From NCBI GenBank assembly GCA_013824115.1, contig PNNG01000016.1:7686-71685 (forward strand): a DNA stretch of 64,000 bases. Direction: 5' to 3'. Position numbers and translations under genes: made by a program. This document shows, in pieces, positions 7,323-56,669 of the stretch. This DNA comes from Sphingobacteriaceae bacterium. GTDB taxonomy: Bacteria > Bacteroidota > Bacteroidia > UBA7662. The notes under the pieces are model-generated. The model did no database searches. It was not told where the DNA came from and worked only from the letters and a program-made list of their open reading frames with translations. How positions within the stretch are numbered: position 1 is the stretch's first letter; each line of letters begins with the position of its first letter.

Positions 7323-10026
<2,704 letters not shown>

Positions 10027-10056
10027 CAAAAGCCCCCGATTTGGGGGCTTTTTTTA
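10027..10056 (+). terminator. rho-independent terminator (bidirectional-looking) between convergent genes
   Basis: GCCCCC (10032-10037), loop GATTT, GGGGGC (10043-10048), then T7. An A-run upstream makes it usable from both strands. Confidence 0.6.
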
Positions 10057-10066
10057 TTGGGCAAGG

Positions 10067-10426
10067 TTAATCTAGTCGGGCCAAGCGATAGAAAGTGAGT
10101 CCTTTTCTTGATTTGATGGCGGTTTCTTGTTTAACCATCTTCCATCTATCATGAAAAGCGTATTTTTCTTCTGATGTGGCCTTGAGCTTAAGCTGAGCGC
10201 CGCGCATGCTGTAGGTGCCCGATACCTTTACCTTTTGGGTAGGGTGTGAAAAGTCCTGATAGGTGAAGGTTTGGTCGGCATGCAACACCAGCTTGATGTT
10301 TGAAGGATCGGTTGGTGAGACGCCAAAAGTTTTGATTACGTTGGTTTGGGCTTTCGTGGATAGTGCCATTAAGGGCATGGCCACGATACACATCAAGCAG
10401 GTTTTTAAAAAGTTGGGGTGTGTCAT
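10067..10426 (-). CDS. hypothetical secreted protein (last gene of ECF operon)
   Basis: 119 aa with a signal peptide ('MPLMALSTKAQ'). It starts 9 nt downstream of the preceding gene on the same strand. I recognised no motif. Confidence 0.5.
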   Translation of the reverse strand: MTHPNFLKTCLMCIVAMPLMALSTKAQTNVIKTFGVSPTDPSNIKLVLHADQTFTYQDFSHPTQKVKVSGTYSMRGAQLKLKATSEEKYAFHDRWKMVKQETAIKSRKGLTFYRLARLD

Positions 10427-10435
10427 ATATGTTGA

Positions 10436-11581
10436 TTAAGGTTTGTAAGGGAATGCCAGGTTGAAGGCGCCGTTGGTGATTTCCATTTGCTCGCTGCCAT
10501 CGGCACTGAACAAGGTACATTGTACGGTGCCTTTCAGTTGTTTTACCGGTAGGCCTTGCGGGGTGTTTTTGAATTCGGCGATGTCGGTAATGAGGAAACT
10601 GGCATTTGCTTGTTGATCGCCGAAAGCCGAGCTGAACAAGGTGCCATCTGCGCGGCGATACTGAATACGGAGCGTACCGGTTTGGAGAGGGTCGTTGAAT
10701 GCGTTGCTGTTTACACGGAAGTTTACAGTACAAAAAATAGCAGGGTCATGTGTTACTTGTTTAACTACTTCGCTGCTGCACTCGTTGTTGAAGGCTCTCA
10801 TGCGCACCAGATTAACATCCCCTGTGCCCAAAGCACTTACCGGTAAGTTGATTTGAACGCCTGTGTAGGTCGCGCCATTGATTTGCCACTGAACAGTGTA
10901 AGGCGCTTGCAGGCTGATGCCCATGGCATTGAATTGTACCTGGCTGTTGTTGTTGATGAGGCTGTAATGAAAATCAGCTGTACAGGAAGTATTTACTGGC
11001 GCAGCTTGAATGATTTTTTCGAGGCTGTTGTTGCAGCCGTTGGTGAAGAATGATGTGAGGCGAACCCGGTAACTGCCTGCAGGCAGCAACAGTTGGGGAG
11101 CCGCCGCCTGGGTGCTTTGGATGAGCTGCCCACTGCTGTCGCGCACTTCCCATTGGCTGGCAATGAGCTGGTTGCCTAAACCCGGGAATGATTGATTTTG
11201 CAATTGCAAGCGGAACAAATTGGAGCCAAAACTGCGAAAGAAAGGATAGGCTTTCCGCTGAAAAGTAGAGTCGGGCACCATGGGAGCTTGGGTTTCCAAG
11301 GCGGCATGGTCGCGGATAATGAATTCCCAGCTGTTTGGGCAGCCATTACAGTTGTTAGGCTGAAGGGCTGCGGTAGTTTCATATACTTGTCGCTGATCCT
11401 GCGCTACGCTCGTTTGCAGGTAGAAGTTATTGTTTCCGGCTTGCAATTGGATGGGCGTGCCGCCGAGTTCGGCTGTGAAGTAGAATTGTGGATTGCCCCG
11501 AACAGCTCCTTCCTCAAAGTCAATAGCGTGTTGACAAGCTAGCAAGCTGCCTAAGAGCCCAAAGAATATTGCTTTTTTCAT
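10436..11581 (-). CDS. hypothetical lipoprotein
   Basis: 381 aa with a lipobox-like 'GSLLAC' and beta-rich, Asn/Gln-rich composition. Its start overlaps the upstream gene's stop by 4 nt (ATGA). Confidence 0.6.
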   Translation of the reverse strand: MKKAIFFGLLGSLLACQHAIDFEEGAVRGNPQFYFTAELGGTPIQLQAGNNNFYLQTSVAQDQRQVYETTAALQPNNCNGCPNSWEFIIRDHAALETQAPMVPDSTFQRKAYPFFRSFGSNLFRLQLQNQSFPGLGNQLIASQWEVRDSSGQLIQSTQAAAPQLLLPAGSYRVRLTSFFTNGCNNSLEKIIQAAPVNTSCTADFHYSLINNNSQVQFNAMGISLQAPYTVQWQINGATYTGVQINLPVSALGTGDVNLVRMRAFNNECSSEVVKQVTHDPAIFCTVNFRVNSNAFNDPLQTGTLRIQYRRADGTLFSSAFGDQQANASFLITDIAEFKNTPQGLPVKQLKGTVQCTLFSADGSEQMEITNGAFNLAFPYKP

Positions 11582-12771
11582 GGTTGCTGGCGTTGAAAGA
11601 GGTGGTATTGCAGGCTGAACTGCCAGGGAGCGGCAGCGGGCAAAGTGTAATTGCCGCTACTTGCATTCCTGAATTGGTATTGCAAGCCAAGGCGGAAAGC
11701 CGGACTGATATCGTACTGATAGCCCAAGCCGGGTAGGAAGCGCTGCACGCTTGCCTGCGGCCAGGCAGCACGGCCATTTTCGGCTTGGATAACCGGTGTT
11801 GCATCTTGCCTTTCAATTTGTTTGTTCAGGCTATAACGCGAAAACAAGTAATGCTGGTAGCTGAGGGCGCCATATACCCGGTGTTTGCCTCTGGCATATC
11901 CGAGTTGCCATGCATTTTGCAGGGTCCAATAATCACGCAGCTCGAGGGTTTGGGTGGTGCGCTCAAAACCAAAATCATAGGTGGTTAAGGTATTCACGTA
12001 GTTCCAATTACGCAATCCTTGCTGCTGCATGCCCACGAGCCATTGTCCGTAAAGCCCATTTTCGAATTGAACAGCAGCGAAGGTACCGGCTTGCCAGTTC
12101 AAGCTTCCGGCACCTCGTTCTCCACTTACATTCCAGGTGGGTTGACTGGCGGTATACAAGCCCAGTGCCCATACAGGTGCCGATTTGGCCTGTGGTCGCT
12201 CAAAAAGGAAGGGTTCAACAGGTCTTTCGGTTGGTGATGGTTTTTCAAATGAGGTGCTCTCCAATTGGACTTTGCGTGCCATTAGATAGGAAACAAGGCC
12301 CGGCCTTTCTACCACTTCAGCTGCTGAACTTACCATGTCAGCAGCCTGGTTGTTGTGGTCAGCAGGCGTGGTGTCTCGATTTTTACCTGGCAGTGGTAAG
12401 GCAGGGGGCAGTGCAGTTGACTCATTCGTTGACGTTCCATGGCCTTTTGCAGTTGTCCAGTCAGTGCGTGTATGCGCGGTACTTTCATCCACTTCCGCCA
12501 ACAGCTCGGTTGTTCGGTTAGGCTTTTCGGCAAGCGCATGTGCCAGCGCTTGCACATTGCTTTGGGGTTGTGTTTCTGCCTGCGAGGGCATGAGCATCCA
12601 CCAAGCGGTTCCACCTACCAGGGCAGGCAACAGCCACAGCCACCACAGGCCTTTGCGCTTGCGTTCTTTTTGAAGCAAGGCTTGCGCCTGCTGCCAATCG
12701 GCCTCCCGGTAAGGGAAGTCGGCGCCATCGAGCAGTTCGCGTATCTTTTTATCGAAGGATTCAGCTTCCAT
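11578..12771 (-). CDS. putative anti-sigma-like membrane protein with beta-barrel-like C-terminal domain
   Basis: 397 aa. It has a short cytoplasmic N-terminus ('FDKKIRELLDGADFPYREADW'), one TM helix ('LWWLWLLPALVGGTAWWMLM'), a Pro/Thr/Ala-rich linker, and about 200 aa of alternating aromatic beta-strand pattern ending '...FSLQYHLF'. It overlaps the ECF sigma stop by 11 nt. Confidence 0.6.
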   Translation of the reverse strand: MEAESFDKKIRELLDGADFPYREADWQQAQALLQKERKRKGLWWLWLLPALVGGTAWWMLMPSQAETQPQSNVQALAHALAEKPNRTTELLAEVDESTAHTRTDWTTAKGHGTSTNESTALPPALPLPGKNRDTTPADHNNQAADMVSSAAEVVERPGLVSYLMARKVQLESTSFEKPSPTERPVEPFLFERPQAKSAPVWALGLYTASQPTWNVSGERGAGSLNWQAGTFAAVQFENGLYGQWLVGMQQQGLRNWNYVNTLTTYDFGFERTTQTLELRDYWTLQNAWQLGYARGKHRVYGALSYQHYLFSRYSLNKQIERQDATPVIQAENGRAAWPQASVQRFLPGLGYQYDISPAFRLGLQYQFRNASSGNYTLPAAAPWQFSLQYHLFQRQQP

Positions 12772-13324
12772 AAGGGGTTCCCTCCATTTTTAAAATCATT
12801 TTTTGCAACACCATTCGGGCATTCATCAGGTGCCATTTCGACGTGTTTTCGCTGATGTTCAGCAGTTCACCAATTTCTCGGTGTTTGTAGCCATCCACTA
12901 CATACAGGTTAAAAACCGTGGCACTCATGGGTGGTAATTGACGTATCATGGCCAGCAGCTGTTCGTAATTGAGTTGATCGCTGATATCGAAATCTTCACT
13001 GGGCGTATTCAATAAGCTGCTGTTTTCGTAATCGGCAGCGTGGTTCAAATCGCGGTATTTTTTATCGGCACGCAGCAGGTTGAGGATGAAGTTCACAGCC
13101 AAACGCTTGAGCCAAGGCTCAAAAGGCATGTTCTGATTGTACTTGTCGAGTTGCTTCAACAGGTGCATGAAAATCTGACTCAGGTAGTCGACCGCTTCCT
13201 CGCGCGATGGGGCATATCGCATGCATACCCGCATGAGGCTGCTGTACACCAGCTGGTACAACTGGTGCTGTGCCTTGGGCTTTCCTTGCAGGCACAACCG
13301 AATCAGATCGCTGTTGAGCTCCAT
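12761..13324 (-). CDS. RNA polymerase ECF-type sigma-70 family factor
   Basis: About 187 aa with region 2 ('FEPWLKRLAVNFILNLLR') and region 4 ('VVDGYKHREIGELLNISENTSKWHLMNARMVLQK'). I prefer the ATG at 13324 to the TTG at 13330. Confidence 0.85.
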   Translation of the reverse strand: MELNSDLIRLCLQGKPKAQHQLYQLVYSSLMRVCMRYAPSREEAVDYLSQIFMHLLKQLDKYNQNMPFEPWLKRLAVNFILNLLRADKKYRDLNHAADYENSSLLNTPSEDFDISDQLNYEQLLAMIRQLPPMSATVFNLYVVDGYKHREIGELLNISENTSKWHLMNARMVLQKMILKMEGTPYGS

Positions 13325-13380
13325 ACACAAATGCCGGAGCCACCCGCAAGGGCGACTCCGGCTGCTTCAGGGTTTGATAC

Positions 13381-14985
13381 TTATTGGATAACTACACGTT
13401 GTGCCGCAAAGCCGTTGTTGCTGCGCAATTCTAGGAGGTAGATGCCTGCGGGAATGCCTTCGAGCGATAATTGCTTGCTGCCTTCACCTGCGGTCAACTG
13501 CCAGTCGTTGGCCAGAACCTGGCGACCGGTCATATCGAGTAGTTGGATTTGCAGCTCGCTTGCTTTTTGGCTCGACAAGGAGATGGTGAGCAAATCGCGC
13601 GCAGGATTGGGGTAAACACCGTTGAGGTTAAAGCCTGCTTGCTCAAGACTGGCTGCAATGCCCGACTGGTTTACAGTGAAGTGCAGCTGTGCGTTCGGAT
13701 TGCTGCTGCTAAGAGTAAAAGGATAGGCGGTAAACGGCATGCCCATCATCTCCACATGCATTTTATAGCTCCCAAAAGCGAGGTTGTTCATGCTGTAAAT
13801 GCCTTGGGTATTGGTGTGTACCGCTTTCAGCACTTGCCCTTGTAGGTTGTGTAGTTGCAGTTGTACACCCGGCATGCCTGTGCTGCCAACGATGGGCAAT
13901 CCGCCTTGGTTTACACCGCCGCCAGCACCGCCTCCGCCGCCACCGGTTCCACCAGCGGCTTGAAGGGCAATGGAGATAACCACTGTGTTGCCGCCACCAA
14001 GGGTAAAGGTGCTGGCAGCCGACCAGGTGGTAGCGTTACCGAAGTAGGTGGGCACAAAGTTGGCTGCGTTGCCACTGATTAAACTGGCCAGGATGGAATA
14101 GGTGCCTGTTCCTGTCGTAGCACGGTAAAAGGAGGCAAATCCCATCGAATCGAGTGCGTAGAATGTGTCAACCGGCGTCCAAATGTTGTTTTGTACCCGA
14201 ATTAAGATCAACCGCAAGGTATCGTTGATCATGGGGTTAGTGCTGGTATTGCCAGTTACGGTACCTGCAATGAAATTCTGAATGGCTCCGCCACGGGGTT
14301 GCAAAATAAGTGGGGGAAGCTGGGTGGTGCCTGCACCCACTTGTGGTATGATGGCGGCTTGGTTCACATTACGCGTGTTTCCGAACCAGGTGGTATCGAA
14401 ATTGTTGAATGAGGCCGAACCAGGCGTTAGGCTAGCCGAAATGCGGTATTGCGCAATATACGGTTTGGTACGGAGGCAATAGGCCGTTGAACCGAGGCCA
14501 AGTGAGTCGTGACTGAAAATAGTGGTATCGAGTAAAAAAGCGCCAGCTACTTGTCGGTACAGTGAAATGGCTACCGTATCGCCGGCGGCCAAGGGCTGTA
14601 CATTGCCGCAGAACCAACCGCCGGTAGGTGCCGGACTGTTTCCGCAGAAAAAATCGAGGTTTGCGATTGGGCTGCCTGGTGACCAAAATGCCGAATCGTA
14701 CTGCGCAACACCATTGCATATGTACATGCCGGTTACAGCACCTTGCGAGGAAGCGGGATTAAAGGTGTAAAGATTGCTGAAAAAACCATTGGCATTCGTT
14801 TGAACGCTGTCCATCATGCTGGTGGCCGGATTGCCGGTGTTGATGAACAAAACCACCCATTGATTGGGAATGCCTATGGTTGTTCCAGGTATACGTACTG
14901 TGCCTTGAATGGTGACACCTTGTGCTGCGGCCTGTGTCCAAATGGCGGCAGAAAACAGGAATAGAAATAGTAATTTTTTAAACAT
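13381..14985 (-). CDS. T9SS C-terminal-target-domain secreted protein, paralog A
   Basis: 534 aa with a signal peptide, a poly-Gly tract ('GGTGGGGGGAGGG'), a carboxypeptidase-regulatory-like segment and a Por_Secre_tail ('VYPNPARDLLTISL...GIYLLELRS...RVVIQ'). It is collinear with the 530-aa ORF at 15246-16838. Confidence 0.85.
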   Translation of the reverse strand: MFKKLLFLFLFSAAIWTQAAAQGVTIQGTVRIPGTTIGIPNQWVVLFINTGNPATSMMDSVQTNANGFFSNLYTFNPASSQGAVTGMYICNGVAQYDSAFWSPGSPIANLDFFCGNSPAPTGGWFCGNVQPLAAGDTVAISLYRQVAGAFLLDTTIFSHDSLGLGSTAYCLRTKPYIAQYRISASLTPGSASFNNFDTTWFGNTRNVNQAAIIPQVGAGTTQLPPLILQPRGGAIQNFIAGTVTGNTSTNPMINDTLRLILIRVQNNIWTPVDTFYALDSMGFASFYRATTGTGTYSILASLISGNAANFVPTYFGNATTWSAASTFTLGGGNTVVISIALQAAGGTGGGGGGAGGGVNQGGLPIVGSTGMPGVQLQLHNLQGQVLKAVHTNTQGIYSMNNLAFGSYKMHVEMMGMPFTAYPFTLSSSNPNAQLHFTVNQSGIAASLEQAGFNLNGVYPNPARDLLTISLSSQKASELQIQLLDMTGRQVLANDWQLTAGEGSKQLSLEGIPAGIYLLELRSNNGFAAQRVVIQ

Positions 14986-15009
14986 GATTTTTAGGTTTAC
15001 TTAACTCCT

Positions 15010-15037
15010 ATACACGAACGGCTCAGGGAAGGTTGGG
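15010..15037 (-). promoter_or_regulatory. putative ECF-type promoter CCCAAC-N16-GTGTAT (copy 1)
   Basis: Read on the minus strand: CCCAAC (15037-15032), a 16-nt spacer, GTGTAT (15015-10). The motif ends 24 nt before the ATG at 14985. The same bipartite motif and spacing occur at 16863-16890 and 21963-21990. Confidence 0.5.
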
Positions 15038-15193
15038 CGAGGGCCGGATTATTTAAGTGTTTATATTGGTTTTTTCTAATTCGATGATTTGCACTTGGCA
15101 CAAATGAATTGCGCCCGTTCGTAAGCCTAAGTTAGTCGTATTTTTTATGGATACACAAACCCATAGGCAGCGGCTTTCTGGCAAAGGGAGTGT

Positions 15194-15230
15194 AAACAAA
15201 AAAGGAGCTGCCACCAGGCAGCTCCTTTTC
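15194..15230 (-). terminator. rho-independent terminator after paralog B
   Basis: GGAGCTGCC (15204-15212), loop ACCA, GGCAGCTCC (15217-15225). On the minus strand a T-rich run follows (complement of AAACAAAAAA). Confidence 0.6.
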
Positions 15231-15245
15231 AATTTTGGTTTTATT

Positions 15246-16838
15246 TTATTGCACCACTACCCGTTGCGTACTGCGTTTGCCGGCACTTTCAACTTCCATC
15301 AAATACAGGCCTGGAGCAACGCCATCTACCCCAAAAGGAAATTCATTGATCCCTTCGGCGAGGTCGTAGAGCTGCTGGGCAACCACACGGCCTTGCAAGT
15401 CAAGCAAACGTGCCTTTAAATGGCCAGCTTCGTTGCCTGTGAGGCGGATGTAGGCCTGGCCCCGCACCGGATTCGGGTAAATGCCCTCCAAGGTAAAGGC
15501 TTGTTGTAAGAGGCTCGCTGCAATTCCTTGGTTAGACACCGAGAAGTGGATTTGTGGGTTCGGATTAGCCGCCGTGATGCTGAATGCATAGGGCGTAAAG
15601 GCAACACCCATCATTTCCACGTGCAATTTATAATCGCTAAATGGCAATTGACTAAAATTATAGCTGCCTTGGGTGTTGGAATGGGTGGCTTTGAGCACTT
15701 GGCCGCTGCTGCTCTGCAACTGGACTTGCACCCCCGGAATCCCGGCACTTCCTGTTACAGGCAAGCCGTTTTGGTTGACGCCTCCGCCTACACCTCCGTT
15801 GCCACCGCCAGTACCGCCAGCTGCAGCCAGGCTGATGAAGGTACTGGATATGGTTCCATTTACAAGGCTAAAGGTTTGTGCTTGCGACCAAGTAGTTACA
15901 TTGCCGAGGTAAGTGGGCACATAATTGGCCGAATTGCCCGACATCAAGGTAGCGAGCAGCGAAAACTGGCCGATGCGGTTCACAGGGATGTTGAAATAAG
16001 CCACACCTGCCGAGTCAATCACAAACAGGGTGTCGATAGGGGTCCAAATACCGTTTTGAACTTCAATGAGGATCAGCCTAACGGTGTCGAGCAGGCTGCC
16101 AGCTGGGCTTGTAAAGCCGCTTACGGTGCCCATTACCCGGTTCACAGGCGTTGACACCGTGCTTTGTAAGACAATGTTGGCAATTGATCCCCCTGTAGGG
16201 ACAAAAATCGATTGCGCCGAAAGCACATTGGTGGTATTACCAAACCAAGTAGGCAAATAGGTGGCGGCATTTACAGATCCCGCTGTCAAACTTGCCCTCA
16301 TGCGGTAAGTGCCGTTAAATACCCGCAGGCAATAGGCAGCAAAGCCAGAGCCGGTGCTGTCGGTTATGCGGATGGTAGTGTCGGCCATGAACGCACCACC
16401 GGTCATGCGGAATAACTCCACCAAAGCGGTATCTCCGGCTGCCAAAGGAGAAATGTTACCGCATAGAAACCTGGGAGTGGGAGGGGTAGGGCTTCCGGTG
16501 CAAAACAAATGGATGGTAGTGGTCATGCTGCCCGGAAACCAAGCGGCAGAGTCAACGGCAAAGCTATTTCCGCACATTGTCTGTGCCAGGACGACCCCGC
16601 TGGTCCAACCGGGTGGTATGGTGTAAATCCGCGAAAAGTTGCCCAAAGAATCGGTTATTACTGTATCTACAAGGGCACCTGGCTGGTTGAAGTTGATGAT
16701 CAATACAACCGGTTGTCCGGGTACGCCTTGCGCCGTGATGGAAGCCCGGAAACTGCCATTGACAGTCAAGGCGAGTCCTTGCGCAAATAAGGTGGAGGTG
16801 CTTAGCATCAACACCAGGAAGAGTAGTTTTTTCAACAT
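15246..16838 (-). CDS. T9SS C-terminal-target-domain secreted protein, paralog B
   Basis: 530 aa with the same architecture as paralog A. Matching blocks include 'CGNISPLAAGDTALVELFR' vs 'CGNVQPLAAGDTVAISLYR' and 'HVEMMGVAFTPYAF' vs 'HVEMMGMPFTAYPF'. The Por_Secre_tail reads 'IYPNPVRGQAYIRL...GLYLMEVES'. Confidence 0.85.
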   Translation of the reverse strand: MLKKLLFLVLMLSTSTLFAQGLALTVNGSFRASITAQGVPGQPVVLIINFNQPGALVDTVITDSLGNFSRIYTIPPGWTSGVVLAQTMCGNSFAVDSAAWFPGSMTTTIHLFCTGSPTPPTPRFLCGNISPLAAGDTALVELFRMTGGAFMADTTIRITDSTGSGFAAYCLRVFNGTYRMRASLTAGSVNAATYLPTWFGNTTNVLSAQSIFVPTGGSIANIVLQSTVSTPVNRVMGTVSGFTSPAGSLLDTVRLILIEVQNGIWTPIDTLFVIDSAGVAYFNIPVNRIGQFSLLATLMSGNSANYVPTYLGNVTTWSQAQTFSLVNGTISSTFISLAAAGGTGGGNGGVGGGVNQNGLPVTGSAGIPGVQVQLQSSSGQVLKATHSNTQGSYNFSQLPFSDYKLHVEMMGVAFTPYAFSITAANPNPQIHFSVSNQGIAASLLQQAFTLEGIYPNPVRGQAYIRLTGNEAGHLKARLLDLQGRVVAQQLYDLAEGINEFPFGVDGVAPGLYLMEVESAGKRSTQRVVVQ

Positions 16839-16862
16839 AACGAAAGGGTTTTATTACACACC

Positions 16863-16890
16863 ATACACCCTCTAATTGTTAAAAGTTGGG
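16863..16890 (-). promoter_or_regulatory. putative ECF-type promoter CCCAAC-N16-GTGTAT (copy 2)
   Basis: Read on the minus strand: CCCAAC (16890-16885), a 16-nt spacer, GTGTAT (16868-16863). The motif ends 24 nt before the ATG at 16838. The spacer sequence is unrelated to that of copy 1. Confidence 0.5.
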
Positions 16891-16940
16891 TGCTCGAACC
16901 ATTTTAAAAAACCGGTACGAGCTTGGTATGTTTCGAGTAA

Positions 16941-17408
16941 ATGAAAATCTGGATTTTATTGGGCTTTTTGGGGGCAGGATTGCTTTCAGCACAAGCACAA
17001 ACGAACACCGATGTTGCTTCGCCTGAAATGTTTGCCTACGATGCGCAAAGCATCAGGTTGTTGGGTGAAGGGATGGGCTATGTGCAAGGAAATGCCGAAC
17101 ATGAGGCCGGTATTTTCAACCGAAAAATGCGCGGCAAACTCTTGGGTGATTCGGCAAATGCGGTTATGGAAGTTTCTGTGGTAAAGCAGCGCAAGGGTTT
17201 TTGGAATGGTTTGGGGGGCTTGGTAGTCGCCAGTGCGGGATTGGCAGCCGCGGCCAATACGCCTGTTGGACTGGTAGTTTTGGTAGGTGGTGCTGTTTGG
17301 TACGGAGTAGGTATCGTCCAATCTATGGAGGGCACCGAGCATTTTCATCGTGCCATTTGGTTACATAATCGCGAGGTGATTGTGCGAGCCAATAAGCCCC
17401 AAGGCTAG
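16941..17408 (+). CDS. hypothetical secreted/membrane protein
   Basis: 155 aa with a signal peptide ('LLSAQAQ') and a Gly/Ala/Val-rich hydrophobic hairpin ('GLGGLVVASAGLAAAANTPVGLVVLVGGAVWYGVGIV'). Confidence 0.45.
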   Translation: MKIWILLGFLGAGLLSAQAQTNTDVASPEMFAYDAQSIRLLGEGMGYVQGNAEHEAGIFNRKMRGKLLGDSANAVMEVSVVKQRKGFWNGLGGLVVASAGLAAAANTPVGLVVLVGGAVWYGVGIVQSMEGTEHFHRAIWLHNREVIVRANKPQG

Positions 17409-19504
17409 ATAGAACCCCAAAACCTGCGCAACAGCCATTCGACGCCCAGTAGTGTCAAAAGTATCGCCATTAGCCACTCTAAATCAATGAGTGATTGCAA
17501 ACGTTGCTCGAAATAGGATTGACTTTCCATTCCTTCTTGCGTTTGTATGGCCAGTACCAAATCATCGGTTTTTTCGATGTCGATGAGCTTTCCTCCAGTG
17601 AGGGCTGCCATTTGTGCCAGGAGGTAGTGGTTAGCTACCGTGTTTATTTTTTCTAAGTCGAGTGCACTCACCGCAAAAACGCCTTTTGCTTCCAATTTTT
17701 TATCTCCCAGGTTCACTTCTGCCTGGTAAGTGTAGTCGCCTGGAGGTAAAGCCCCTGCATTGAGGTAATAATATTGACGGTTGCGACCCATGACGAACGA
17801 ATACTGTTGGCCGTTGAGGTTCTTTACACGTAACCGCACCTCCGGGTCATTCACCGCTTCGTTGGCCGCATTGAATAATTCAGCGTCGAAAACGATTTCT
17901 TCCTGCTCTTCATATAGTTTTTTGGAGCTGCGCACCTTAAAAGGGGCATTGTCTGCCGTAACCGACAAAAACTGTAAGGTTTTACGAACCAGCTCCTCCA
18001 ATGTTTGGCCATTGGCGATACTGGTCTCGGCCAGTGCAAGTCCCCATTTCCAAAGCCCTTCGCCTGCCAATACAGCAGTACGTGGCGTTTCGGCGGAGTA
18101 TGCCAAAAGAGGCATTCCTGTATTAAGGCTTCCTATGCGTTGAATGAGTAGTGATTGAGCTTGGCCGCCCAGCTTGTACTCGCCAAAAGGCGCATCGAGT
18201 GGTGGCAGATTGTCGAGTAGCCTGCCCAAATTCGGGTCGGAGGCAAATAAGGTAAAATCGGTAGCTGCAACGCCCTGCACTTTGTTGGTTCCACCACCTC
18301 TGCTGCTAATTTGTAAAACACTTTGCAGCTGGTTGAAAGCGAAAATTTGCGTTTGGGTTCCTACCACGTACCAAATGGGCACCTCCCAGCGCTTAAGTTG
18401 CGTCATCCATGCAACACTGTTTGGGGCCAAACTGGGTATTTGATGAAGGACTACCAGGTCGGGTTTGGAGGCTGTTTGGGGACTTTGATAAGCGTATGCC
18501 AAAGTGGTTTCGTAACGCGGATTGCCGCTGAGTGCACGGCCAATGAAGCCCAAATCGGGGTGCGGACCATTGCCTAACAACAAAATGCGGGTACGGGTAT
18601 CTACCACTTCCACATAAATTTCACGCTGGTTGTTGTTCAATAGATTGGGGTCTTCGCCAGCCACCTTGGCACTTACACGGTATTTTTGAAGCCCGGCCTT
18701 TCCTGCAGGTACAGTAAAATTGGCGGTTGCAAAGCTGTTGTCGCCACGCAGCGTTAAATTTTCGCTGCCCAACTTGATAAAGCCTCCTTTTTCAAATTTT
18801 TCGAGCTCTAACTGCACCAATTGTCCACCTAGACGTGTGGCCTCCACATCAACCAGCAGGCTAAAATCGCTTTCGATGTATACCACTTGGTTGGCGCGTA
18901 AATTTTTGATACGCAGGTCACGGGTGATTGTTGTGTCACCCAAGGGAAGGGTGTAGACCGGAACCCCAAGCGCCTCGGCTGCCCTAACGGCGTCGCCACC
19001 ACGGTTTTGTATGCCATCGCTCACCAGTACCACTGCGGCAAGCTGCTGTCCACCCAGGCGGTTGCCCAGTTGCTCAAAAGCTCGACTGAAATCAGTAGCG
19101 CCTTCGCTAAAATCGAAACCCAAGCTATCGCTTAACTTTTCACCGAAGCTAAACAGTCGAAAATCGGCTTTTTCGCCTATTTTTTGGGGGAGGTTCAAGC
19201 TCCACTGGCGCAACTTTTCGGCAAGCTTTCCACTGTCGGTTTGGTGCAGGAGCGAGGCGCTGTTGTCGAATACTACCGCCACTACTGGCTTTTCTACTAT
19301 TTTTTTGTCGGTTTTCAGGTAAAAACCAGCGAGCAGAAGCACCAAAACAAAAATACTCAAAAACCTGAGCGCCGCTAAAACGAGGTGTTGTTGGCGGTTT
19401 TCGGTTGGCTGTTTTTTATAAAAATACAGCAACCAGGCAAAAGAAGCCGCCAGCAGCGGGGCCAGCAGCCAAAACCATCCGCCTTGTTGCGAGAGTATTT
19501 CCAT
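17405..19504 (-). CDS. vWA (von Willebrand A) domain-containing membrane protein, BatA/BatB-like
   Basis: 699 aa with two N-terminal TM helices, a MIDAS-like DxSxS ('VVAVVFDNSASLL') and a C-terminal TM helix. Confidence 0.7.
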   Translation of the reverse strand: MEILSQQGGWFWLLAPLLAASFAWLLYFYKKQPTENRQQHLVLAALRFLSIFVLVLLLAGFYLKTDKKIVEKPVVAVVFDNSASLLHQTDSGKLAEKLRQWSLNLPQKIGEKADFRLFSFGEKLSDSLGFDFSEGATDFSRAFEQLGNRLGGQQLAAVVLVSDGIQNRGGDAVRAAEALGVPVYTLPLGDTTITRDLRIKNLRANQVVYIESDFSLLVDVEATRLGGQLVQLELEKFEKGGFIKLGSENLTLRGDNSFATANFTVPAGKAGLQKYRVSAKVAGEDPNLLNNNQREIYVEVVDTRTRILLLGNGPHPDLGFIGRALSGNPRYETTLAYAYQSPQTASKPDLVVLHQIPSLAPNSVAWMTQLKRWEVPIWYVVGTQTQIFAFNQLQSVLQISSRGGGTNKVQGVAATDFTLFASDPNLGRLLDNLPPLDAPFGEYKLGGQAQSLLIQRIGSLNTGMPLLAYSAETPRTAVLAGEGLWKWGLALAETSIANGQTLEELVRKTLQFLSVTADNAPFKVRSSKKLYEEQEEIVFDAELFNAANEAVNDPEVRLRVKNLNGQQYSFVMGRNRQYYYLNAGALPPGDYTYQAEVNLGDKKLEAKGVFAVSALDLEKINTVANHYLLAQMAALTGGKLIDIEKTDDLVLAIQTQEGMESQSYFEQRLQSLIDLEWLMAILLTLLGVEWLLRRFWGSI

Positions 19505-19525
19505 CAGTTAGTTGTGCCCTAAAAA

Positions 19526-20272
19526 TTACATTTGCAATCCACCACAAACGTTGATTACTTGTCCGGTGATATAGGCACTGGCATCCGATGCCAAGAAAAT
19601 AGTCAGGTTGGCCACATCGTCGGTGCTGCCTGCACGGCCCAGTGGAATCATTTTGTTCCATTCTTCAATCACCTTGGGGTCGAGGGAGTCGGTCATTTCG
19701 GTTTGGATGAAGCCCGGAGCAATGGCATTGCAGCGGATATTGCGTGAGCCTAGCTCCTTGGCGATAGATTGGGTGAAGCCGATTACGCCTGCCTTGGAAG
19801 CGCTGTAGTTCGATTGGCCGGCGTTGCCATCACGACCCACTACCGAACTCATATTGATGATGCTGCCACGGCGGTTTTTCATCAAATGCCGCGCAGCATG
19901 TTTGGTGATGTTGTACACCGATTTGAGATTGGTATCAATCACCGCATCCCATTGTTCTTCGCCCATGCGCAACAGCAGGCCGTCTTTGGTGATGCCGGCA
20001 TTATTCACGATGATTTCCAGATCGCCGAAATCAGCAATAATGGCATTGATGAGGCTTTCGGCTTCGGCATAATTGCCAGCATCCGATTTATATCCTTTGG
20101 CACGTACGCCTGCAGCCTGCAATTCGGCTTCGAGGGCACGGGCTTTTTCTTCCGATGAGAGGTAGGTGAAGGCCACATCGGCGCCTTCGGCGGCAAATTT
20201 GCGGGCAATGCCCAAACCTATGCCACGTGATGCACCTGTAATGAGGGCTACTTTTCCTTGCAATGCTTTCAT
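19526..20272 (-). CDS. fabG: 3-oxoacyl-[acyl-carrier-protein] reductase
   Basis: SDR protein with 'GKVALITGASRGIG', 'NNAGIT' and 'YSASKAGVIGFTQSIAKEL'. I prefer the ATG at 20272 (MKALQGK...). Confidence 0.9.
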   Translation of the reverse strand: MKALQGKVALITGASRGIGLGIARKFAAEGADVAFTYLSSEEKARALEAELQAAGVRAKGYKSDAGNYAEAESLINAIIADFGDLEIIVNNAGITKDGLLLRMGEEQWDAVIDTNLKSVYNITKHAARHLMKNRRGSIINMSSVVGRDGNAGQSNYSASKAGVIGFTQSIAKELGSRNIRCNAIAPGFIQTEMTDSLDPKVIEEWNKMIPLGRAGSTDDVANLTIFLASDASAYITGQVINVCGGLQM

Positions 20273-20598
20273 GATGGGTAGTTTGCTAGCTGGCAAAGAT
20301 AAGGGTGCAACTGAAGTTTTGGGGAAGGTGCTACATGAATTTTGGAACTCGGGATGATGTCATTCATCGATTTCTTCTGACTAGCTGGGGGTTGCATTCT
20401 GGTTCTTGGCTAAAGAATGGGGCTGGGGGCATTTCATGGATGGTCGTGGAAGACATTGTCATGGATTTTGGTCTTGAACCAAGAAAATGAAGTACGCGAT
20501 GGAGGCTGTCTTCTTAATGGCAACCTATGAATTGCTTTAATTGGGGCTTATTTGTTCGGATGTAAGTAGAAGTGTAGCTTTAAAAAGTTTTTTAGACT

Positions 20599-21942
20599 AT
20601 GAATTTCTTTCGGTTCGTTTTCCTCTTCACTTTGCTAGGCTTTGGTGGACAGACGATGGGGCAAGGGCTCCAAAATTTAATCAGCCAGACGCAATGGCAG
20701 TCGATGTTCCCCCAGCGAGCAGGTACCGCAGCGGGACATCCGCAAGGTTACACCAGTGATTTTTTCGCTTATGTAAAACTGCAGCAAGCCATGCAGCAAA
20801 TGGCCGATTTCAGGGCAACCATTGAAACCAAAGCAGGTGTATGGGGCGAGCGCATCACCATTACCCGTTTGGGCAGCGGTCAGCAGTACCTGTATGCCGA
20901 ACCCGACAACAACTGGCTACAAAGCAGTGTGCCCATCACCACCCAGGTAATCAACTTTGCCGATTTTGCCAATACCCCATCTATCAATCAAAACAAACGC
21001 GAACTGGCTGCTTTTTTAGCGAATATTTCTAAAGAAACTACAGGCGGATGGCAGTTTCCTATTGGCGGCGGCAGTTTTGGCGATTATGCTTTATGGGGAT
21101 TGTATTTTGTGCATGAAGTTGGTTATACTGCGTCTAACAGCGCAGGTGCTTACTCGCAAGCACATCCACTTTATCCTCCCAATCCGAGCAAAGGCTACTA
21201 CGGCAGGGGTCCCATCCAGTTATCGTGGAACTACAATTACGGACAGTTCAGTAAATTTTTGTTTAACGATGCCTCTGTTTTGCTCAACGATCCAGACTCA
21301 TTGCAACGTGATGGTGTGATCGCTTTTCAATCGGCACTTTGGTTTTGGATGATGCCGCAATGTCCCAAGCCTTCGTGCCACCAGGTGATGCACGGACGCT
21401 GGGTGCCCCAGGTGGGTGCTTACAGTGCAAGCAAAATGTACCAGCAAGGTTTTGCGCATACCAACAACATCATCAACGGAGGGCTGGAGTGTCGCAGCAC
21501 ATCTACGCCTGCATTCACCCAAAAAGTGGTGCTTCGTTCGGGCTTGTACAAGTATTATTTGGGATTAATGGGCTTCACCCCAGCTGAAATAGCCGCCGAA
21601 GACAGCGCCCATTTCACAACCACTTGCTACGACAGTACTGGCCAATCCATGGAAAACTACCTGCAATGTGATGTATTGCCCACCACCCAAACGGCAGTGG
21701 TCCCCTTAGCGCATAGCGGCTTGAAGGCCCATCCATCTCCTTTTTCCAACCAGCTTATCATAGAAATGCCAGATGCGCAACACATGAATAGCTTGGTGAT
21801 AAGGAATAGCTTGGGCCAAGTGGTTTACCAGGGTGCCCTTCAAAATAGGCTGGAACTACCAACTGCCGATTGGACTTCAGGGATTTACCTCCTTCAACTT
21901 TCAGCCGGTTCGGGCCATGTTTTCAAGATCATTAAATACTAA
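20599..21942 (+). CDS. glycoside hydrolase family 19 (class I-type) chitinase with T9SS C-terminal domain
   Basis: 447 aa with a signal peptide, GH19 signatures ('FLANISKETTGGW', 'YYGRGPIQLSWNYNYG', 'INGGLEC') and a Por_Secre_tail ('AHPSPFSNQLIIEM...GIYLLQLSAG'). Confidence 0.85.
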   Translation: MNFFRFVFLFTLLGFGGQTMGQGLQNLISQTQWQSMFPQRAGTAAGHPQGYTSDFFAYVKLQQAMQQMADFRATIETKAGVWGERITITRLGSGQQYLYAEPDNNWLQSSVPITTQVINFADFANTPSINQNKRELAAFLANISKETTGGWQFPIGGGSFGDYALWGLYFVHEVGYTASNSAGAYSQAHPLYPPNPSKGYYGRGPIQLSWNYNYGQFSKFLFNDASVLLNDPDSLQRDGVIAFQSALWFWMMPQCPKPSCHQVMHGRWVPQVGAYSASKMYQQGFAHTNNIINGGLECRSTSTPAFTQKVVLRSGLYKYYLGLMGFTPAEIAAEDSAHFTTTCYDSTGQSMENYLQCDVLPTTQTAVVPLAHSGLKAHPSPFSNQLIIEMPDAQHMNSLVIRNSLGQVVYQGALQNRLELPTADWTSGIYLLQLSAGSGHVFKIIKY

Positions 21943-21962
21943 GTGAAAAAAACACGGAGTGA

Positions 21963-21990
21963 CCCAACCTTATGCTTTTGAAAAGTGTAT
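21963..21990 (+). promoter_or_regulatory. putative ECF-type promoter CCCAAC-N16-GTGTAT (copy 3)
   Basis: CCCAAC (21963-21968), a 16-nt spacer, GTGTAT (21985-21990). The motif ends 23 nt before the ATG at 22014. It lies 21 nt after the chitinase stop. Confidence 0.5.
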
Positions 21991-22013
21991 ATCCTAACAT
22001 TGTGTCGCATTTC

Positions 22014-24563
22014 ATGTCGTTCAGATGCCTTGAGCACCGCTACCCTGTAGTCTTGCCCCATTTCCTTGCCACTTTCTTTTGTATTGCCTTTCTTATTACA
22101 AGTGGAAACTCCTTAGCGCAGCCCTTAAACGGCAATTACACCATTGGCGGAACAACCCCAAATTTCGCCACCATCAATGCGGCTGTTCAGCAATTAGACA
22201 GTGTAGGCATAAGCGGACCGGTTACCTTTTGGATCCGCAATGGCATTTACCCCGAAGTTTTGTTCATCGATTCGGTGAATGGATCGTCGGCGGTTAACAC
22301 CATCACCTTTCGCTCGGAAAGTGGCGACAGCAGTGCGGTGGTGATCAACGGTACTACCAACAGTGTTATCGACAAAACTCTTTGGCTGAACCGTGTGGCT
22401 TATATGCGCTTTCATCAAATTACTTTCAGACAGCTGCCTTCGGTGCACAATAGAGCCGTAGTTTTTGTGGGCCGGGGGCACAACATCACCCTTTCGAATT
22501 GTGTGATTTGGGGACATTTAAGCTCTACCAGCAGTCGAACCATCACGGCACTGCAAGGGGCGTGTGACTCGAATTACTTGGTAGAAAATTGCGTCATCAG
22601 AGGTGCCTATCAAGGCCTGATTTCGGCAGGAAGCAGCTTTCCCGCGCAACAACGGCCCATTTTTAGAAACAATTATATTTTCGGCATTGCTACCGATTGT
22701 ATTTATGTCGTTGGAGGGGCCTTCGCCAAGATCGCAGGTAATCGAATTGAAGCGGGTGGAGGGTCGTCAACGGCGGCTATTCTGTTGTCGGGACACAGCA
22801 GGGCCCAAATTGTGGGCAACCGCATTTCAGTGCTGAGCGGTGCGCAAAATAGCCATGGCATCCAAATCATTTCTTCAAGTGGTTGGCCCAATGAGCCGCT
22901 TTTGGTGGCCAATAATGAAATCAGCTTTACGGCTGGCGGTTCACCCATAGCCTATGGCATCAGGGCCAGTGGCTCTTACCTTCATTATGCTCACAACTCC
23001 GTACGCATGAGCGGTGGGGTGTATTCGGTGGCCCTACAATTGGAAGTAACCCACAACTGCCGCTTATTTAACAATGTGTTGGTGCATGAAGGAACTGGGA
23101 CAGGCAATCACGCCTTGCATCTTTCCGTCAATTCGCAAGATGCCGTGAGCAATTATAATAACCTGTATACGGCAGGCCCCAACTTAACCCCTATCCACAC
23201 CACTTTGGCCGCCTACCAAACTGCCACTGGCCGAGATTCAATGTCGGTTTCGGTGCCACCGCAATTCGTCAGCACAAGCATACTTATTCCCAACGCACCT
23301 GCCTTGATGAACAGTGGCTTGCTTTTGCCCGAAGTGCCCTTTGATATCAATGGTGTGCCACGCAATAACCCACCCGATATGGGGGCTTATGAACAGCTCA
23401 CGGCTCCGGTTGTGGCGCTAGGCCCCGATACAACAGCCTGCGATTCGTTGGTCTTGAGTGTTCCTACGCAACCAGGCACGCAATGGCTGTGGAGTACGGG
23501 CGATACCCAGCGTGGTATCGTCGTCCGCAATTCTGGAACTTATTGGCTGCAAGGCACCAACAGCATAGGCGTTTCGCGCGATACGGTGGTGGTAAGCATT
23601 CTGCCTCGACCCATTTTGCAGTTGGGCTTTACGGCCGATACCCTCTGCTCCGGCACTTGTGTGACCTTACAAGCCAATGTGAGCGGTGGATCAGGTAATT
23701 TTAGCTATTCGTGGCAACCAGCCAATGGCCTGAGCAATCCACTTATTGCTAATCCGGTGGCATGTCCTGCTAGTTCAACGACCTATCGCTTGTGGCTGAA
23801 TGATGCCAACGGTTGTGCAGTCTTGAGCGATTCCATCCTCATAAACGTAACGCCCGATGCCCAGCTAACGGCCGGACCAGCCGATACGGCCTGTGCTGGC
23901 GATACCATTTTCATTGAAGCCAATACCGCTTGGACTGGGGCTCAAATCAGGTGGGAACCAGCCTTGTGGATCGAAAATCCAAACGCAGCCCGCACCCGAG
24001 CCTGGCCGCCCGTTGGTACCCGCACTTTTGTGGTGCTGGCCACCCACCCCGATGGTTGCAGCGACACGGCTCAAAAAACAGTGACCATTGATCCGGTGCC
24101 ATTAACACCACAGATCAGCTGGCAAAACGGCCTTTTACAGAGCTCAGCTTCTGCGGGCAATCAGTGGTTGTTCAATGATTCGGCGATAGCCGGAGCAAAC
24201 AGCCAAAGCTATCAGCCCACTGTGAATGGCAATTATCAGGTACGAGTAACCAATGCGCAAACTTGCAGCAGTATTTCTGCTGTTTTCGTGCTACAACAAG
24301 TGGGCGTTCGTCCATTGGAGCCGCTCCATCTGAGCGTTTGGCCAAATCCGGCCAGCGATGTATTGCATTTGAAAGCAGACATGATAGGTGAATGGATCAT
24401 CACAGACGCCGCGGGTAGGCAATTGCGCAAAGCCATTGCAGATCAATCATCCCATTCAACAACTGTAGACATCAGCCATCTAGCCGCTGGCATGTACCTG
24501 CTGCATTTTAAGGCCAGCAATGGACAAAGCCGCAGCATTCCATGGATCAAAGCCGCTTACTGA
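22014..24563 (+). CDS. T9SS C-terminal-target-domain protein with right-handed beta-helix repeats
   Basis: About 849 aa. The signal peptide begins at M15 of the tracked ORF ('MSFRCLEHRYPVVLPHFLATFFCIAFLITSGNSLAQ'). It has pectate-lyase-like repeats ('NCVIWG','NCVIRG','GNRIEAG','GNRISV','NNEISF'), Ig-like Cys-containing modules and a Por_Secre_tail ('VWPNPASDVLHLKAD...GMYLLHFKAS'). I moved the start because the tracked ATG at 21972 lies inside the promoter motif. Confidence 0.8.
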   Translation: MSFRCLEHRYPVVLPHFLATFFCIAFLITSGNSLAQPLNGNYTIGGTTPNFATINAAVQQLDSVGISGPVTFWIRNGIYPEVLFIDSVNGSSAVNTITFRSESGDSSAVVINGTTNSVIDKTLWLNRVAYMRFHQITFRQLPSVHNRAVVFVGRGHNITLSNCVIWGHLSSTSSRTITALQGACDSNYLVENCVIRGAYQGLISAGSSFPAQQRPIFRNNYIFGIATDCIYVVGGAFAKIAGNRIEAGGGSSTAAILLSGHSRAQIVGNRISVLSGAQNSHGIQIISSSGWPNEPLLVANNEISFTAGGSPIAYGIRASGSYLHYAHNSVRMSGGVYSVALQLEVTHNCRLFNNVLVHEGTGTGNHALHLSVNSQDAVSNYNNLYTAGPNLTPIHTTLAAYQTATGRDSMSVSVPPQFVSTSILIPNAPALMNSGLLLPEVPFDINGVPRNNPPDMGAYEQLTAPVVALGPDTTACDSLVLSVPTQPGTQWLWSTGDTQRGIVVRNSGTYWLQGTNSIGVSRDTVVVSILPRPILQLGFTADTLCSGTCVTLQANVSGGSGNFSYSWQPANGLSNPLIANPVACPASSTTYRLWLNDANGCAVLSDSILINVTPDAQLTAGPADTACAGDTIFIEANTAWTGAQIRWEPALWIENPNAARTRAWPPVGTRTFVVLATHPDGCSDTAQKTVTIDPVPLTPQISWQNGLLQSSASAGNQWLFNDSAIAGANSQSYQPTVNGNYQVRVTNAQTCSSISAVFVLQQVGVRPLEPLHLSVWPNPASDVLHLKADMIGEWIITDAAGRQLRKAIADQSSHSTTVDISHLAAGMYLLHFKASNGQSRSIPWIKAAY

Positions 24564-46129: not shown

Positions 46130-46942
46130 TTAACCTTTGGCGAGCGTCTCGCTGTAAAGCCACAAAGTATCAGCCAATCCAGCATCTCGGCCGGCAGGGG
46201 CGGCTTTGTTGAGCTTGCGGTTTTTGTAGTAGCCTCCCGAAACGTGTCCATGGGTGGTGGCCAGGTGCAAAGTGGTGGCAGCACCTTTGGCTGGGGTGAT
46301 GAGGAAAGGCCGCATCAAAGCCCACATCCATTTCATGCCACCCAAACCATTGCCAAAGCCGGTATTCACTACGCCCGGATGGAGCGCAAAGGCCTGTAAA
46401 CCCTGTGCATGGTAGCGTTTGTGCAGCTCAGCTGTGAATAGCACATTGCACAATTTGGCGTTGGCATAAGCGCCAAAAGCCGACCAACCTTTTTCAAGTT
46501 GGAAATCGTTCGGGTTCAATCGTCCGGCCCGGTGCGCCTCTGAACTTACGTTGATGACTTTTCCCTTGGCAGCAAGCAATTGGGGTAGCAAGCTGTTGGT
46601 GAGTAAAAAGTGACCCAAATGGTTCATCTGAAACTGCATTTCGTGCCCGTCTACGGTTACTTCGCGCTGCGAAGTGAGTCCACCTGCATTGTTGATGAGT
46701 ACATCAATGGAGCCGATGTTTTTGATTGCCGACGCTGCCGCACGTACGCTGTTCAAATGGGCCAGGTCGCAAGTAACGGTTTCAATTTTGGCTTGGGGAT
46801 ATTTTTGAAGCAACTCGTTTTTTTGGGCTGCACTTTTTTGTGGATTGCGGTTGAGCAACCAAAGCTGATGGCCTGCTGCTGCTAAATGCTCGGCAGTGGC
46901 GGCACCAATGCCCGAGGTGGTTCCGGTAATGACAATGTTCAT
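46130..46942 (-). CDS. SDR family oxidoreductase
   Basis: 270 aa with 'ITGTTSGIGAATA', 'NNAG' and 'YANAKLCNVLF'. Confidence 0.85.
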   Translation of the reverse strand: MNIVITGTTSGIGAATAEHLAAAGHQLWLLNRNPQKSAAQKNELLQKYPQAKIETVTCDLAHLNSVRAAASAIKNIGSIDVLINNAGGLTSQREVTVDGHEMQFQMNHLGHFLLTNSLLPQLLAAKGKVINVSSEAHRAGRLNPNDFQLEKGWSAFGAYANAKLCNVLFTAELHKRYHAQGLQAFALHPGVVNTGFGNGLGGMKWMWALMRPFLITPAKGAATTLHLATTHGHVSGGYYKNRKLNKAAPAGRDAGLADTLWLYSETLAKG

Positions 46943-56512: not shown

Positions 56513-56669
56513 GTTTTTTTTTGGACAATTTTAGCGCAGAAACAAAGGGCAAAAAATGCCGTGGATTGGGTATTTTCACTACCAACTTGCCAGCACGATT
56601 GGCCATGAAGCTGCAAATGGAATGGCAATTTGTGCTGCTCTCAACCTTTCTGCGTTATTTTGCGTTTAA

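Follow-up and report, generated by a model that had tools for sequence, protein, structure and literature searches.

The 64,000-nt stretch of Sphingobacteriaceae contig PNNG01000016.1 analysed here (hereafter the window) contains three exact copies of a bipartite motif, CCCAAC-N16-GTGTAT, each a short distance upstream of a gene encoding type IX secretion system (T9SS) cargo. The gene behind the first copy is followed by one for an extracytoplasmic function (ECF) sigma factor at positions 12761-13324. The motif behaved like an ECF promoter in every comparative test that was run, which supports the architecture proposed in the first-pass annotation, and the adjacent sigma factor probably recognizes it as a promoter, with a probability of about three in four as judged from comparative sequence analysis.

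The three copies (P_A, P_B and P_H; Table 1) were recovered at the coordinates first reported for them, against 0.00 copies expected from 100 dinucleotide-preserving shuffles. The distances from the second hexamer to the ATG (24, 24 and 23 nt, respectively) and the unrelated sequences of the three spacers were likewise confirmed. All three downstream genes encode T9SS cargo, as had been claimed, with hydrophobic N termini in their translations and matches to Por_Secre_tail PF18962 and to TIGR04183 (59.5 bits for cargo A, 47 for cargo B and 33.6 for the 849-aa beta-helix protein, against a cutoff of 23), and the third is not paralogous to A and B. The start of the 849-aa gene was placed at 22014, consistent with the signal peptide and database gene calls; on the same grounds an in-frame ATG at 21972, inside the spacer, was rejected. 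A scan of the window allowing up to two mismatches gave only two additional matches, a background level, and none was promoter-like. The window's three remaining genes for T9SS cargo, all confirmed as such, do lack the motif upstream, as do the short-chain dehydrogenase/reductase (SDR) and 699-aa genes, whose upstream regions were also checked.

Related loci were fetched from genome and metagenome collections with the sigma protein, and the contigs carrying orthologues of the beta-helix gene and cargo A were located. The resulting clade sample comprised eleven further Chitinophaga-like contigs, and the footprint 20 non-redundant promoter sites. Conservation at orthologous loci, which had been put forward as a check, was found for the hexamers and not for the spacers. 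Information content was 1.7–2 bits at each position of CCCAAC and 1.5 bits at the G, T and A of the -10 block, and ∼0 bits in the spacer and upstream flank. CCCAAC was present in 19 of the 20 sites, with ACCAAC in the remaining one, and the spacer measured 16 nt at all window sites and 16–17 nt across the clade. In the promoters of A, B and the beta-helix gene, both hexamers were intact and spacers and flanks diverged across 10 further contigs; five aligned A promoters had invariant CCCAACC and GTGTA with unalignable sequence between them, and four aligned B promoters had invariant ACCCAAC and GTA.

Sites orthologous to P_A retained the motif with a different spacer in seven loci (L001, L064, L066, L067, L111, L112, and L117) and read CCCAACC-N17-CGTA in L118 and L119. 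At P_B the -10 block was GGGTAC in L001, GTGTAT in L066, TTGTAT in L067, GTGTAC in L112, GGGTAA in L117 and ACGTAT in L119. The P_H motif was kept in L067, L111, and L112, as ACCAAC-N16-GTGTAT in L113, where the gene has other neighbours and 43 nt separate the motif from the real ATG, and as CCCAAC-N16-GCGTAA in L115, whose orthologue is only 49% identical at the protein level. The -10 element was thus CGTA, that is, the canonical ECF CGT, in L115, L118, and L119. Since L118 and L119, which branch deepest in the clade, carry CCCAACC-N16/17-CGTA, the GTGTAT of the window is best seen as a lineage variant (x-TGTA-T) of the ECF CGT -10.

The neighbouring SDR gene was used for comparison within the same loci. 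About 25 nt before its start (window ∼20297-20330, minus strand) lies a Bacteroidota sigma-A -7 box (TAtcTTTG or TAtaTTTG), kept at the same position in L001, L111, L112, L117, L118, and L119; the cargo genes had no such box. Within 278 kb of clade DNA, each match to a relaxed motif with a start codon after it preceded cargo A, cargo B or the beta-helix gene. Most of this DNA is one syntenic region, and it is therefore no genome-wide test of the regulon, so that a regulon dedicated to T9SS cargo can be proposed only with this qualification.

The sigma factor has sigma-2 and sigma-4 domains only (PF04542 at residues 24–90, PF08281 at residues 123–173; TIGR02937 78 bits against a cutoff of 42.9) and falls in the ∼170–200 aa size range of ECF (group IV) sigma-70 proteins. 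A wider set of 98 loci from Saprospiraceae, Flavobacteriaceae, Bacteroidales and others, with sigma factors 24–43% identical to that of the window, was examined for a similar element. CAAC[CT]-N15-17-(CGT/CGA/TGTC/TGTA) was present within 250 nt upstream of the sigma gene in 57 of these loci, compared with ∼4% expected from its frequency in the rest of the same 98 loci; the nominal binomial P of 6e-53 overstates independence, the loci being phylogenetically related. The consensus of the distant sites was xxCAACC(c/t/a)TTT...CGTC/CGAT/CGTT/TGTC, and a Saprospiraceae subgroup with the closest non-orthologous sigma factors (∼40% identity) had its own upstream element with an identical CCCAACC -35. 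Because the same box precedes distant sigma genes, the -35 of the three cargo promoters corresponds to the autoregulatory -35 of the sigma clade, and this family-wide -35 is the strongest sequence-based argument that the adjacent sigma factor, or some sigma factor of its clade, would read the motif.

Two observations concern individual sigma loci. In Flavobacterium urocaniciphilum (L047), three tandem aatgCAACC-N16-CGTCt elements occur ∼105, 190, and 275 nt upstream of the sigma gene, ∼85 nt apart, as if an autoregulatory promoter had been triplicated or a unit of 85 nt were repeated. In L119, the deposited sigma call at 7327-7782 (151 aa) starts too late, and an ATG directly after the hairpin, ∼100 nt upstream, restores the full length.

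An association between promoter, T9SS cargo and sigma factor recurs independently in other lineages, judging from gene order and upstream sequences. In L002, whose sigma factor shows 43% identity, the sigma gene comes after two genes for T9SS cargo with PKD repeats, each with CCAACT-N16-CGTT/CGTC, and the second ends 28 nt before the sigma gene. L096, from an unrelated lineage, has a four-fasciclin T9SS cargo with a CAACT box upstream and a terminator hairpin between cargo and sigma, and a PKD cargo (L079) or a CarboxypepD_reg cargo (L088) stands directly before the sigma gene elsewhere.

Among Bacteroidales metagenome-assembled genomes (L043, L051, L053, L055, L056, L058, and L101), a second high-scoring site, CAACC-N15-TGTC, was found ∼2.2 kb downstream of the sigma start. 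It precedes a conserved lipoprotein of 262–264 aa with GSG-rich repeats, which is not T9SS cargo and probably belongs to the regulon there; the content of the regulon thus differs from one lineage to another. These lipoproteins were considered as NigD-like, as reported for Das1, and this was rejected, as by eye they resemble GIN/DUF2807-like repeat proteins instead.

The order of cargo A, sigma, 397-aa and 38x-aa genes was conserved in every clade locus holding the module. Between the cargo A stop and the sigma ATG lies a hairpin (Table 1) whose 3′ side runs from the stem into ATTTGTGTAT. It was the first-listed terminator-like site of the region and had the most G-C pairs; its predicted folding energy was -31.5 kcal/mol (z = -4.5), more stable than the canonical terminator after cargo B. 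Two details of the first-pass annotation were revised here. The hairpin had been described as U-tract-less, and instead has a terminator-like stem, a conserved position and a partly U-rich tail, AUUUGUGUAU, with 6 U in 10 nt, interrupted, inside which the sigma ATG begins. The gap between cargo A and sigma, given as 50 nt, is 56 nt to the ATG (13324) and would be 50 only with a TTG at 13330 as start.

This 56-nt gap was 88% identical among close relatives; the differences included wobble changes and, in L067, a single compensatory one from C-G to U-A. At the equivalent position L118 and L119 have a hairpin that differs widely in sequence (ACAGGGUGGG...CCCGCCCUGU) and is followed by a U-rich tail, UUGUUUUUGUU in L119. 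These two could not be aligned with the others (MAFFT, RNAalifold) and clade-wide covariation statistics are weak, so individual folds were relied on.

P_A is the presumed autoregulatory promoter of the sigma operon. That it could drive an autoregulated operon, as had been suggested, agrees with the conserved cargo-sigma-397-38x block with the motif at its head. The suggestion needs one amendment, as a strong, conserved, terminator-like hairpin stands before the sigma gene, and sigma expression from P_A therefore requires read-through. No separate conserved sigma promoter was found in the 3′ end of cargo A or in the 56-nt gap; a candidate, CAAACC...CGCC, was rejected as weak, failing the T of CGT and not common to L118 and L119. 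The hairpin is presumed to be an attenuator, or a processing or stability element, and on our reading sets a high ratio of cargo to regulator. The SDR and 699-aa genes always lie just upstream of the cargo/sigma module, and read-through from the SDR housekeeping promoter could provide basal sigma expression.

The gene downstream of sigma encodes a 397-aa protein, and its adjacency and co-orientation with sigma were kept in all clade loci. The family is clade-specific, forming 13 clusters. Neither this protein nor the 381-aa protein encoded after it had a Pfam, NCBIfam or PDB sequence match, and phmmer found no sequence homologues of either beside the distant sigma homologues. The predicted fold is the sole lead to the identity of the 397-aa protein. 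In an alignment of 12 orthologues, residues 1–60 were nearly invariant, consisting of a charged helix and then a hydrophobic WWLWLLPALVGG. The AlphaFold2 (AF2) model has helices at residues 5–15 and 24–58, the latter including WWLWLLPALVGG, and together with the alignment it places a transmembrane (TM) helix at ∼41–60. Residues ∼60–195 are disordered, without secondary structure and with a predicted local distance difference test (pLDDT) score <50, and were gapped and poorly conserved in the alignment. The C-terminal ∼200 residues are again conserved, and the model has ten long antiparallel strands at residues 200–396 (pLDDT mostly ∼80–90), for which the best Foldseek matches were exclusively outer-membrane barrels (OmpA TM domain, Ail, OmpX, OmpW, and NspA).

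The 397-aa protein is thus predicted from its model to be an anti-sigma factor of the Dma type, a dual membrane-spanning family, in which a helix in the cytoplasm and a TM helix are joined by a disordered tether to a barrel resembling OmpA. Proteins encoded after the distant sigma genes are built to the same plan: an “EFPFDExAW”-like segment at the N terminus precedes a TM helix, and many end in an aromatic residue. OMP_b-brl_2 (PF13568) scored above cutoff in three of ten tested (L003, L019, and L049). Given the predicted four-part Dma architecture of the partner, the system looks like an ECF21/Dma pair, and, as ECF21 sigma factors are reported to be encoded next to Dma proteins (PMC13088901), the window sigma factor is probably ECF21-like.

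Taken together, the preferred reading is as follows. CCCAAC(C) would be the -35 and the (G/T)TGTA(T) block 16 nt downstream a lineage variant of the ECF CGT -10. The Dma-type partner would hold sigma at the inner membrane through its N-terminal sigma-binding helix until a signal at the outer membrane or cell surface led to proteolysis of the anti-sigma factor and release of sigma. Free sigma would then transcribe at least three T9SS type-A cargo genes, namely the beta-sandwich paralogs A and B and the unrelated beta-helix gene. Transcripts from P_A that read through the hairpin would reach the genes for sigma, anti-sigma, lipoprotein and small secreted protein, closing a positive-feedback loop, with the hairpin ensuring that more cargo than regulator would be made.

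Several points weigh against this reading. Two of eight beta-helix orthologues, both distant (L114 and L116), had no motif, and the -10 of the window, aligned as TGTA, keeps the G and T and not the C of canonical CGT. The sigma gene has no copy of the motif immediately before it, and autoregulation from P_A would depend on read-through of the hairpin. The partner had no Pfam OMP_b-brl_2 match, and the mean pLDDT of its model was only 58, even though the barrel mostly reached ∼80–90. The regulon may also include non-cargo genes. Finally, Bacteroidota average 22.5 ECF sigma factors per genome (PMC7826278), and the motif could in fact be read by a paralog that prefers the same -35.

In this last case the motif would still be a genuine ECF-type promoter, read by a sigma factor encoded elsewhere, and the adjacency would be coincidental or a matter of cross-talk. 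The number of candidate sigma factors, the overlap in specificity that a CAACC-type -35 common to homologues at 24–43% identity may bring, and the terminator-like hairpin that separates sigma from P_A all lend themselves to this explanation. We consider it unlikely, as cargo, sigma and anti-sigma stay together as one inherited block in every clade locus, invariably headed by the motif, the promoter-cargo-sigma layout is repeated in independent lineages, and the closest non-orthologous sigma factors, those of Saprospiraceae, have the identical -35 before their own genes. It is distinctly improbable that the hexamers are instead a transcription-factor binding site or an RNA-level element of the 5′ leader. 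The evidence is one of conservation and GTGTAT is no textbook -10, yet the anatomy is that of a two-block promoter, with rigid 16–17 nt spacing, a spacer of zero information and a fixed distance to the start codon. Moreover, AAC, a hallmark of ECF promoters, is part of the first block, the second becomes CGTA in relatives, sigma genes throughout the family are preceded by this bipartite element, and the hexamers are neither palindromic nor repeated, unlike most transcription-factor sites.

A by-product of history, in which duplication of A to B carried the motif along and the third copy arose by chance, is hardly credible, as the footprint in effect refutes it. With A and B being paralogs (47% identity), two of the three copies are not independent; against this, no match was expected by chance, and the spacers and flanks of A and B are fully diverged with hexamers intact in the 10 further contigs. 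The beta-helix gene keeps the motif in six of eight orthologues, including those of L113 and L115. The earlier view that selection acted on the motif, rather than carry-over by duplication, is therefore upheld. Recognition by the adjacent ECF sigma factor thus remains the preferred explanation. A further step, that the ‘cargo-first’ ECF/Dma operon is a T9SS-coupled cell-surface signalling device in which the cargo encoded at the head of the operon leaves through the T9SS and, once displayed at the surface, feeds back on its own sigma factor, is speculative and rather unlikely. If true, it would explain why unrelated cargo (tandem beta-sandwich, PKD, and fasciclin) is found repeatedly between an autoregulatory promoter and sigma in different Bacteroidota lineages, and why the cargo gene is separated from the sigma gene by a terminator-like hairpin in two of these lineages or more, namely that of the window and L096.

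Coordinates of the promoters, operon, cargo and neighbouring genes are given in Table 1. For cargo A, the AF2 model was all-beta (pLDDT 76), and its Foldseek neighbours were tandem beta-sandwich surface proteins (the B. anthracis TIE protein, macroglobulin MG domains, SdrD, and pilins). The cargo A family is small and restricted to the clade. Because no catalytic domain was evident, an adhesin-like or structural role at the surface is most likely. Only a single cargo paralog precedes sigma in L064/L065, L111, and L118, so that not all members of the clade share the A/B duplication; in L119 the two cargo copies stand in tandem, without the divergent 155-aa gene between them.

The 849-aa protein had no sequence match to any solved structure. 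The GH19 chitinase gene lies directly upstream of the beta-helix gene, its stop in the window being 20 nt before the P_H motif. This pairing was kept in L111 and in the otherwise non-syntenic L113, and the chitinase was missing in L112 and L067; from the pairing, the beta-helix protein may act on a related substrate. In the operon, orthologues of the 381-aa lipoprotein occupied the same position in all clade loci.

Table 1. Position and main characters of the features discussed, numbered from the first nucleotide of the window (CTD, C-terminal domain).
Feature	Position	Strand	Characters
Bidirectional terminator	10028-10052		Closes the operon
119-aa secreted protein	10067..10426	-	Borderline DUF3994 match; last operon gene; only in some relatives
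381-aa predicted lipoprotein	10436..11581	-	Lipobox LLAC near N terminus; 4-nt overlap with anti-sigma gene
Dma-type anti-sigma candidate, 397 aa	11578..12771	-	Overlaps sigma gene by 11 nt, same strand
ECF sigma factor, 187 aa	12761..13324	-	Sigma70_r2 and Sigma70_r4_2; TIGR02937
Terminator-like hairpin	13333..13362	-	13-bp stem, 10 G-C pairs, tetraloop; between cargo A stop and sigma ATG
Cargo A, 534 aa	13381..14985	-	Signal peptide, three N-terminal beta-sandwich domains, Gly-rich linker, CarboxypepD_reg/SdrD_B-like domain, T9SS type-A CTD
Predicted promoter P_A	15010..15037	-	Exact match, before cargo A
Canonical terminator after cargo B	15229-15200		-25.1 kcal/mol
Cargo B, 530 aa	15246..16838	-	Paralog of A, same architecture, monocistronic
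Predicted promoter P_B	16863..16890	-	Exact match, before cargo B
155-aa protein	16941-17408	+	No Pfam or NCBIfam match; syntenic in most or all clade loci
699-aa protein	17405-19504	-	No Pfam or NCBIfam match; syntenic in most or all clade loci
SDR gene	19526-20296	-	Conserved sigma-A -7 box
GH19 chitinase, T9SS cargo	20599-21942	+	Without motif
Predicted promoter P_H	21963..21990	+	Exact match, before the 849-aa beta-helix gene
849-aa T9SS cargo	22014..24563	+	Right-handed beta-helix, sub-threshold SprB-repeat match, type-A CTD; unrelated to A/B
1468-aa T9SS cargo	29991-34397		Without motif
RCC1-repeat T9SS cargo	55190-56512	-	Without motif

Some further matches in the window were rejected. 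With spacers of 12–24 nt allowed, the hexamer pair occurred four times, against 0.11 expected in total. The fourth exact pair, CCCAAC-N20-GTGTAT at 10386-10417 on the minus strand, lies within the first codons of the 119-aa open reading frame (ORF); it was kept in L066 and replaced by CCCGGC...TTTGTAT in L064/L065. As it was lost in the latter and its 20-nt spacer does not fit ECF geometry, it was treated as probably a coding coincidence. The family-derived weight matrix gave two matches judged to be chance, CAACC-N17-CGTT at 46485 (plus strand), within an SDR-like ORF on the opposite strand, and CTCAAC-N16-GCGTTT at 56642 (plus strand), 2 nt before the start of a DAHP-synthase/chorismate-mutase gene.

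The open-access literature yielded no ECF or Dma regulon of T9SS cargo, no promoter consensus for such systems and no cargo-first operon. The proposal that an ECF regulon for T9SS cargo would be new stands to this extent, although the sigma/anti-sigma pair is of a kind described in 2024. What is new here is the wiring of sigma to T9SS cargo and the cargo-first design of the operon. ECF21/Dma systems were recognized only in 2024, and little is established on their signals, promoters and regulons outside gut Bacteroides. The present analysis offers a promoter consensus that can be tested in the clade, (C)CAACC-N16-CGT, with CCCAAC-N16-GTGTAT as its form in the window, and the first predicted regulon of T9SS cargo instead of T9SS machinery. 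The recurrent promoter-cargo-hairpin-sigma-anti-sigma design suggests that expression of particular surface proteins is coupled to an envelope-spanning sensor. If confirmed, the consensus would make it possible to predict from sequence which T9SS secretomes environmental Bacteroidota produce under specific conditions.

The nearest known systems are Das1/Dma1 (BT_4720/BT_4721) and Das2/Dma2 of Bacteroides thetaiotaomicron, which pair an ECF21 sigma factor with an anti-sigma factor of the dual membrane-spanning kind (PMC10927553, PMC13088901). According to the passages of these two papers considered here, the Dma family, published in 2024, has ECF21 sigma factors as partners and is found only in Bacteroidota, and Dma1 is annotated as OMP_b-brl_2 (PMC10927553). 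The Das/Dma regulon in B. thetaiotaomicron comprises NigD-like lipoproteins and BT_1287 and controls vesiculation, the NigD2 gene adjoining the operon, and stress phenotypes of Dma/ECF21 are reported in B. fragilis and P. vulgatus (PMC10927553). Those passages describe no promoter motif, and the word ‘motif’ occurs 0 times in PMC13088901. The system of the window resembles Das/Dma, so far as these sources go, in a sigma factor co-encoded with a partner predicted to be built of N-terminal segment, TM helix, tether and barrel, in a small predicted regulon that includes a neighbouring gene, and in its restriction to Bacteroidota. It differs in its predicted targets, which are T9SS type-A cargo, and in having one cargo gene at the head of the sigma transcription unit; the window anti-sigma candidate also lacks both detectable sequence similarity to the partners of the distant sigma factors and the Pfam OMP_b-brl_2 match. 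EcfO/Reo of B. fragilis, cited in PMC10927553 as an orthologue of the Dma1 system, has an anti-sigma factor whose N-terminal cytoplasmic region sequesters sigma; it is tied there to oxidative-stress protection with no T9SS link, and was compared with the window by description only.

A link between an ECF sigma factor and T9SS is known from PorXY-SigP of Porphyromonas gingivalis, into which the CTD protein PorA feeds, and from the SM6 ‘CGT -10’ promoters of Flavobacterium psychrophilum (PMC4800418, PMC8265659, PMC7712824, PMC9723704). The common ground is an ECF sigma factor tied to type IX secretion and ECF-type promoters with a CGT-like -10. These systems control genes of the T9SS machinery (por, gldN, and porU), and SigP works with a two-component system, whereas in the window the predicted targets are cargo, with no part for the machinery, and control would lie with a sigma factor and its anti-sigma partner.

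With cell-surface signalling of the FecI/FecR/FecA type the window would share the coupling of an outer-membrane barrel to an inner-membrane anti-sigma factor and an ECF sigma factor, and a small local regulon. The receptor and anti-sigma factor are, however, predicted to be one polypeptide in the window, with no TonB-dependent transducer, FecR domain or transport genes. The promoters themselves may be compared with classical ECF promoters, such as those of sigma-W, sigma-X and sigma-M in Bacillus subtilis, which have the form AAC-N16/17-CGT with a -35 of TGAAAC or TGCAAC and are autoregulated. The window promoters likewise have a -35 ending in AAC, a rigid 16–17 nt spacer and a G-T core in the -10, and would likewise serve autoregulation. 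They differ in the CCCAAC(C) of the -35, in the replacement of the C of CGT (TGTA or GGTA), and in the presumed autoregulatory promoter being separated from the sigma gene by a whole cargo gene and a hairpin.

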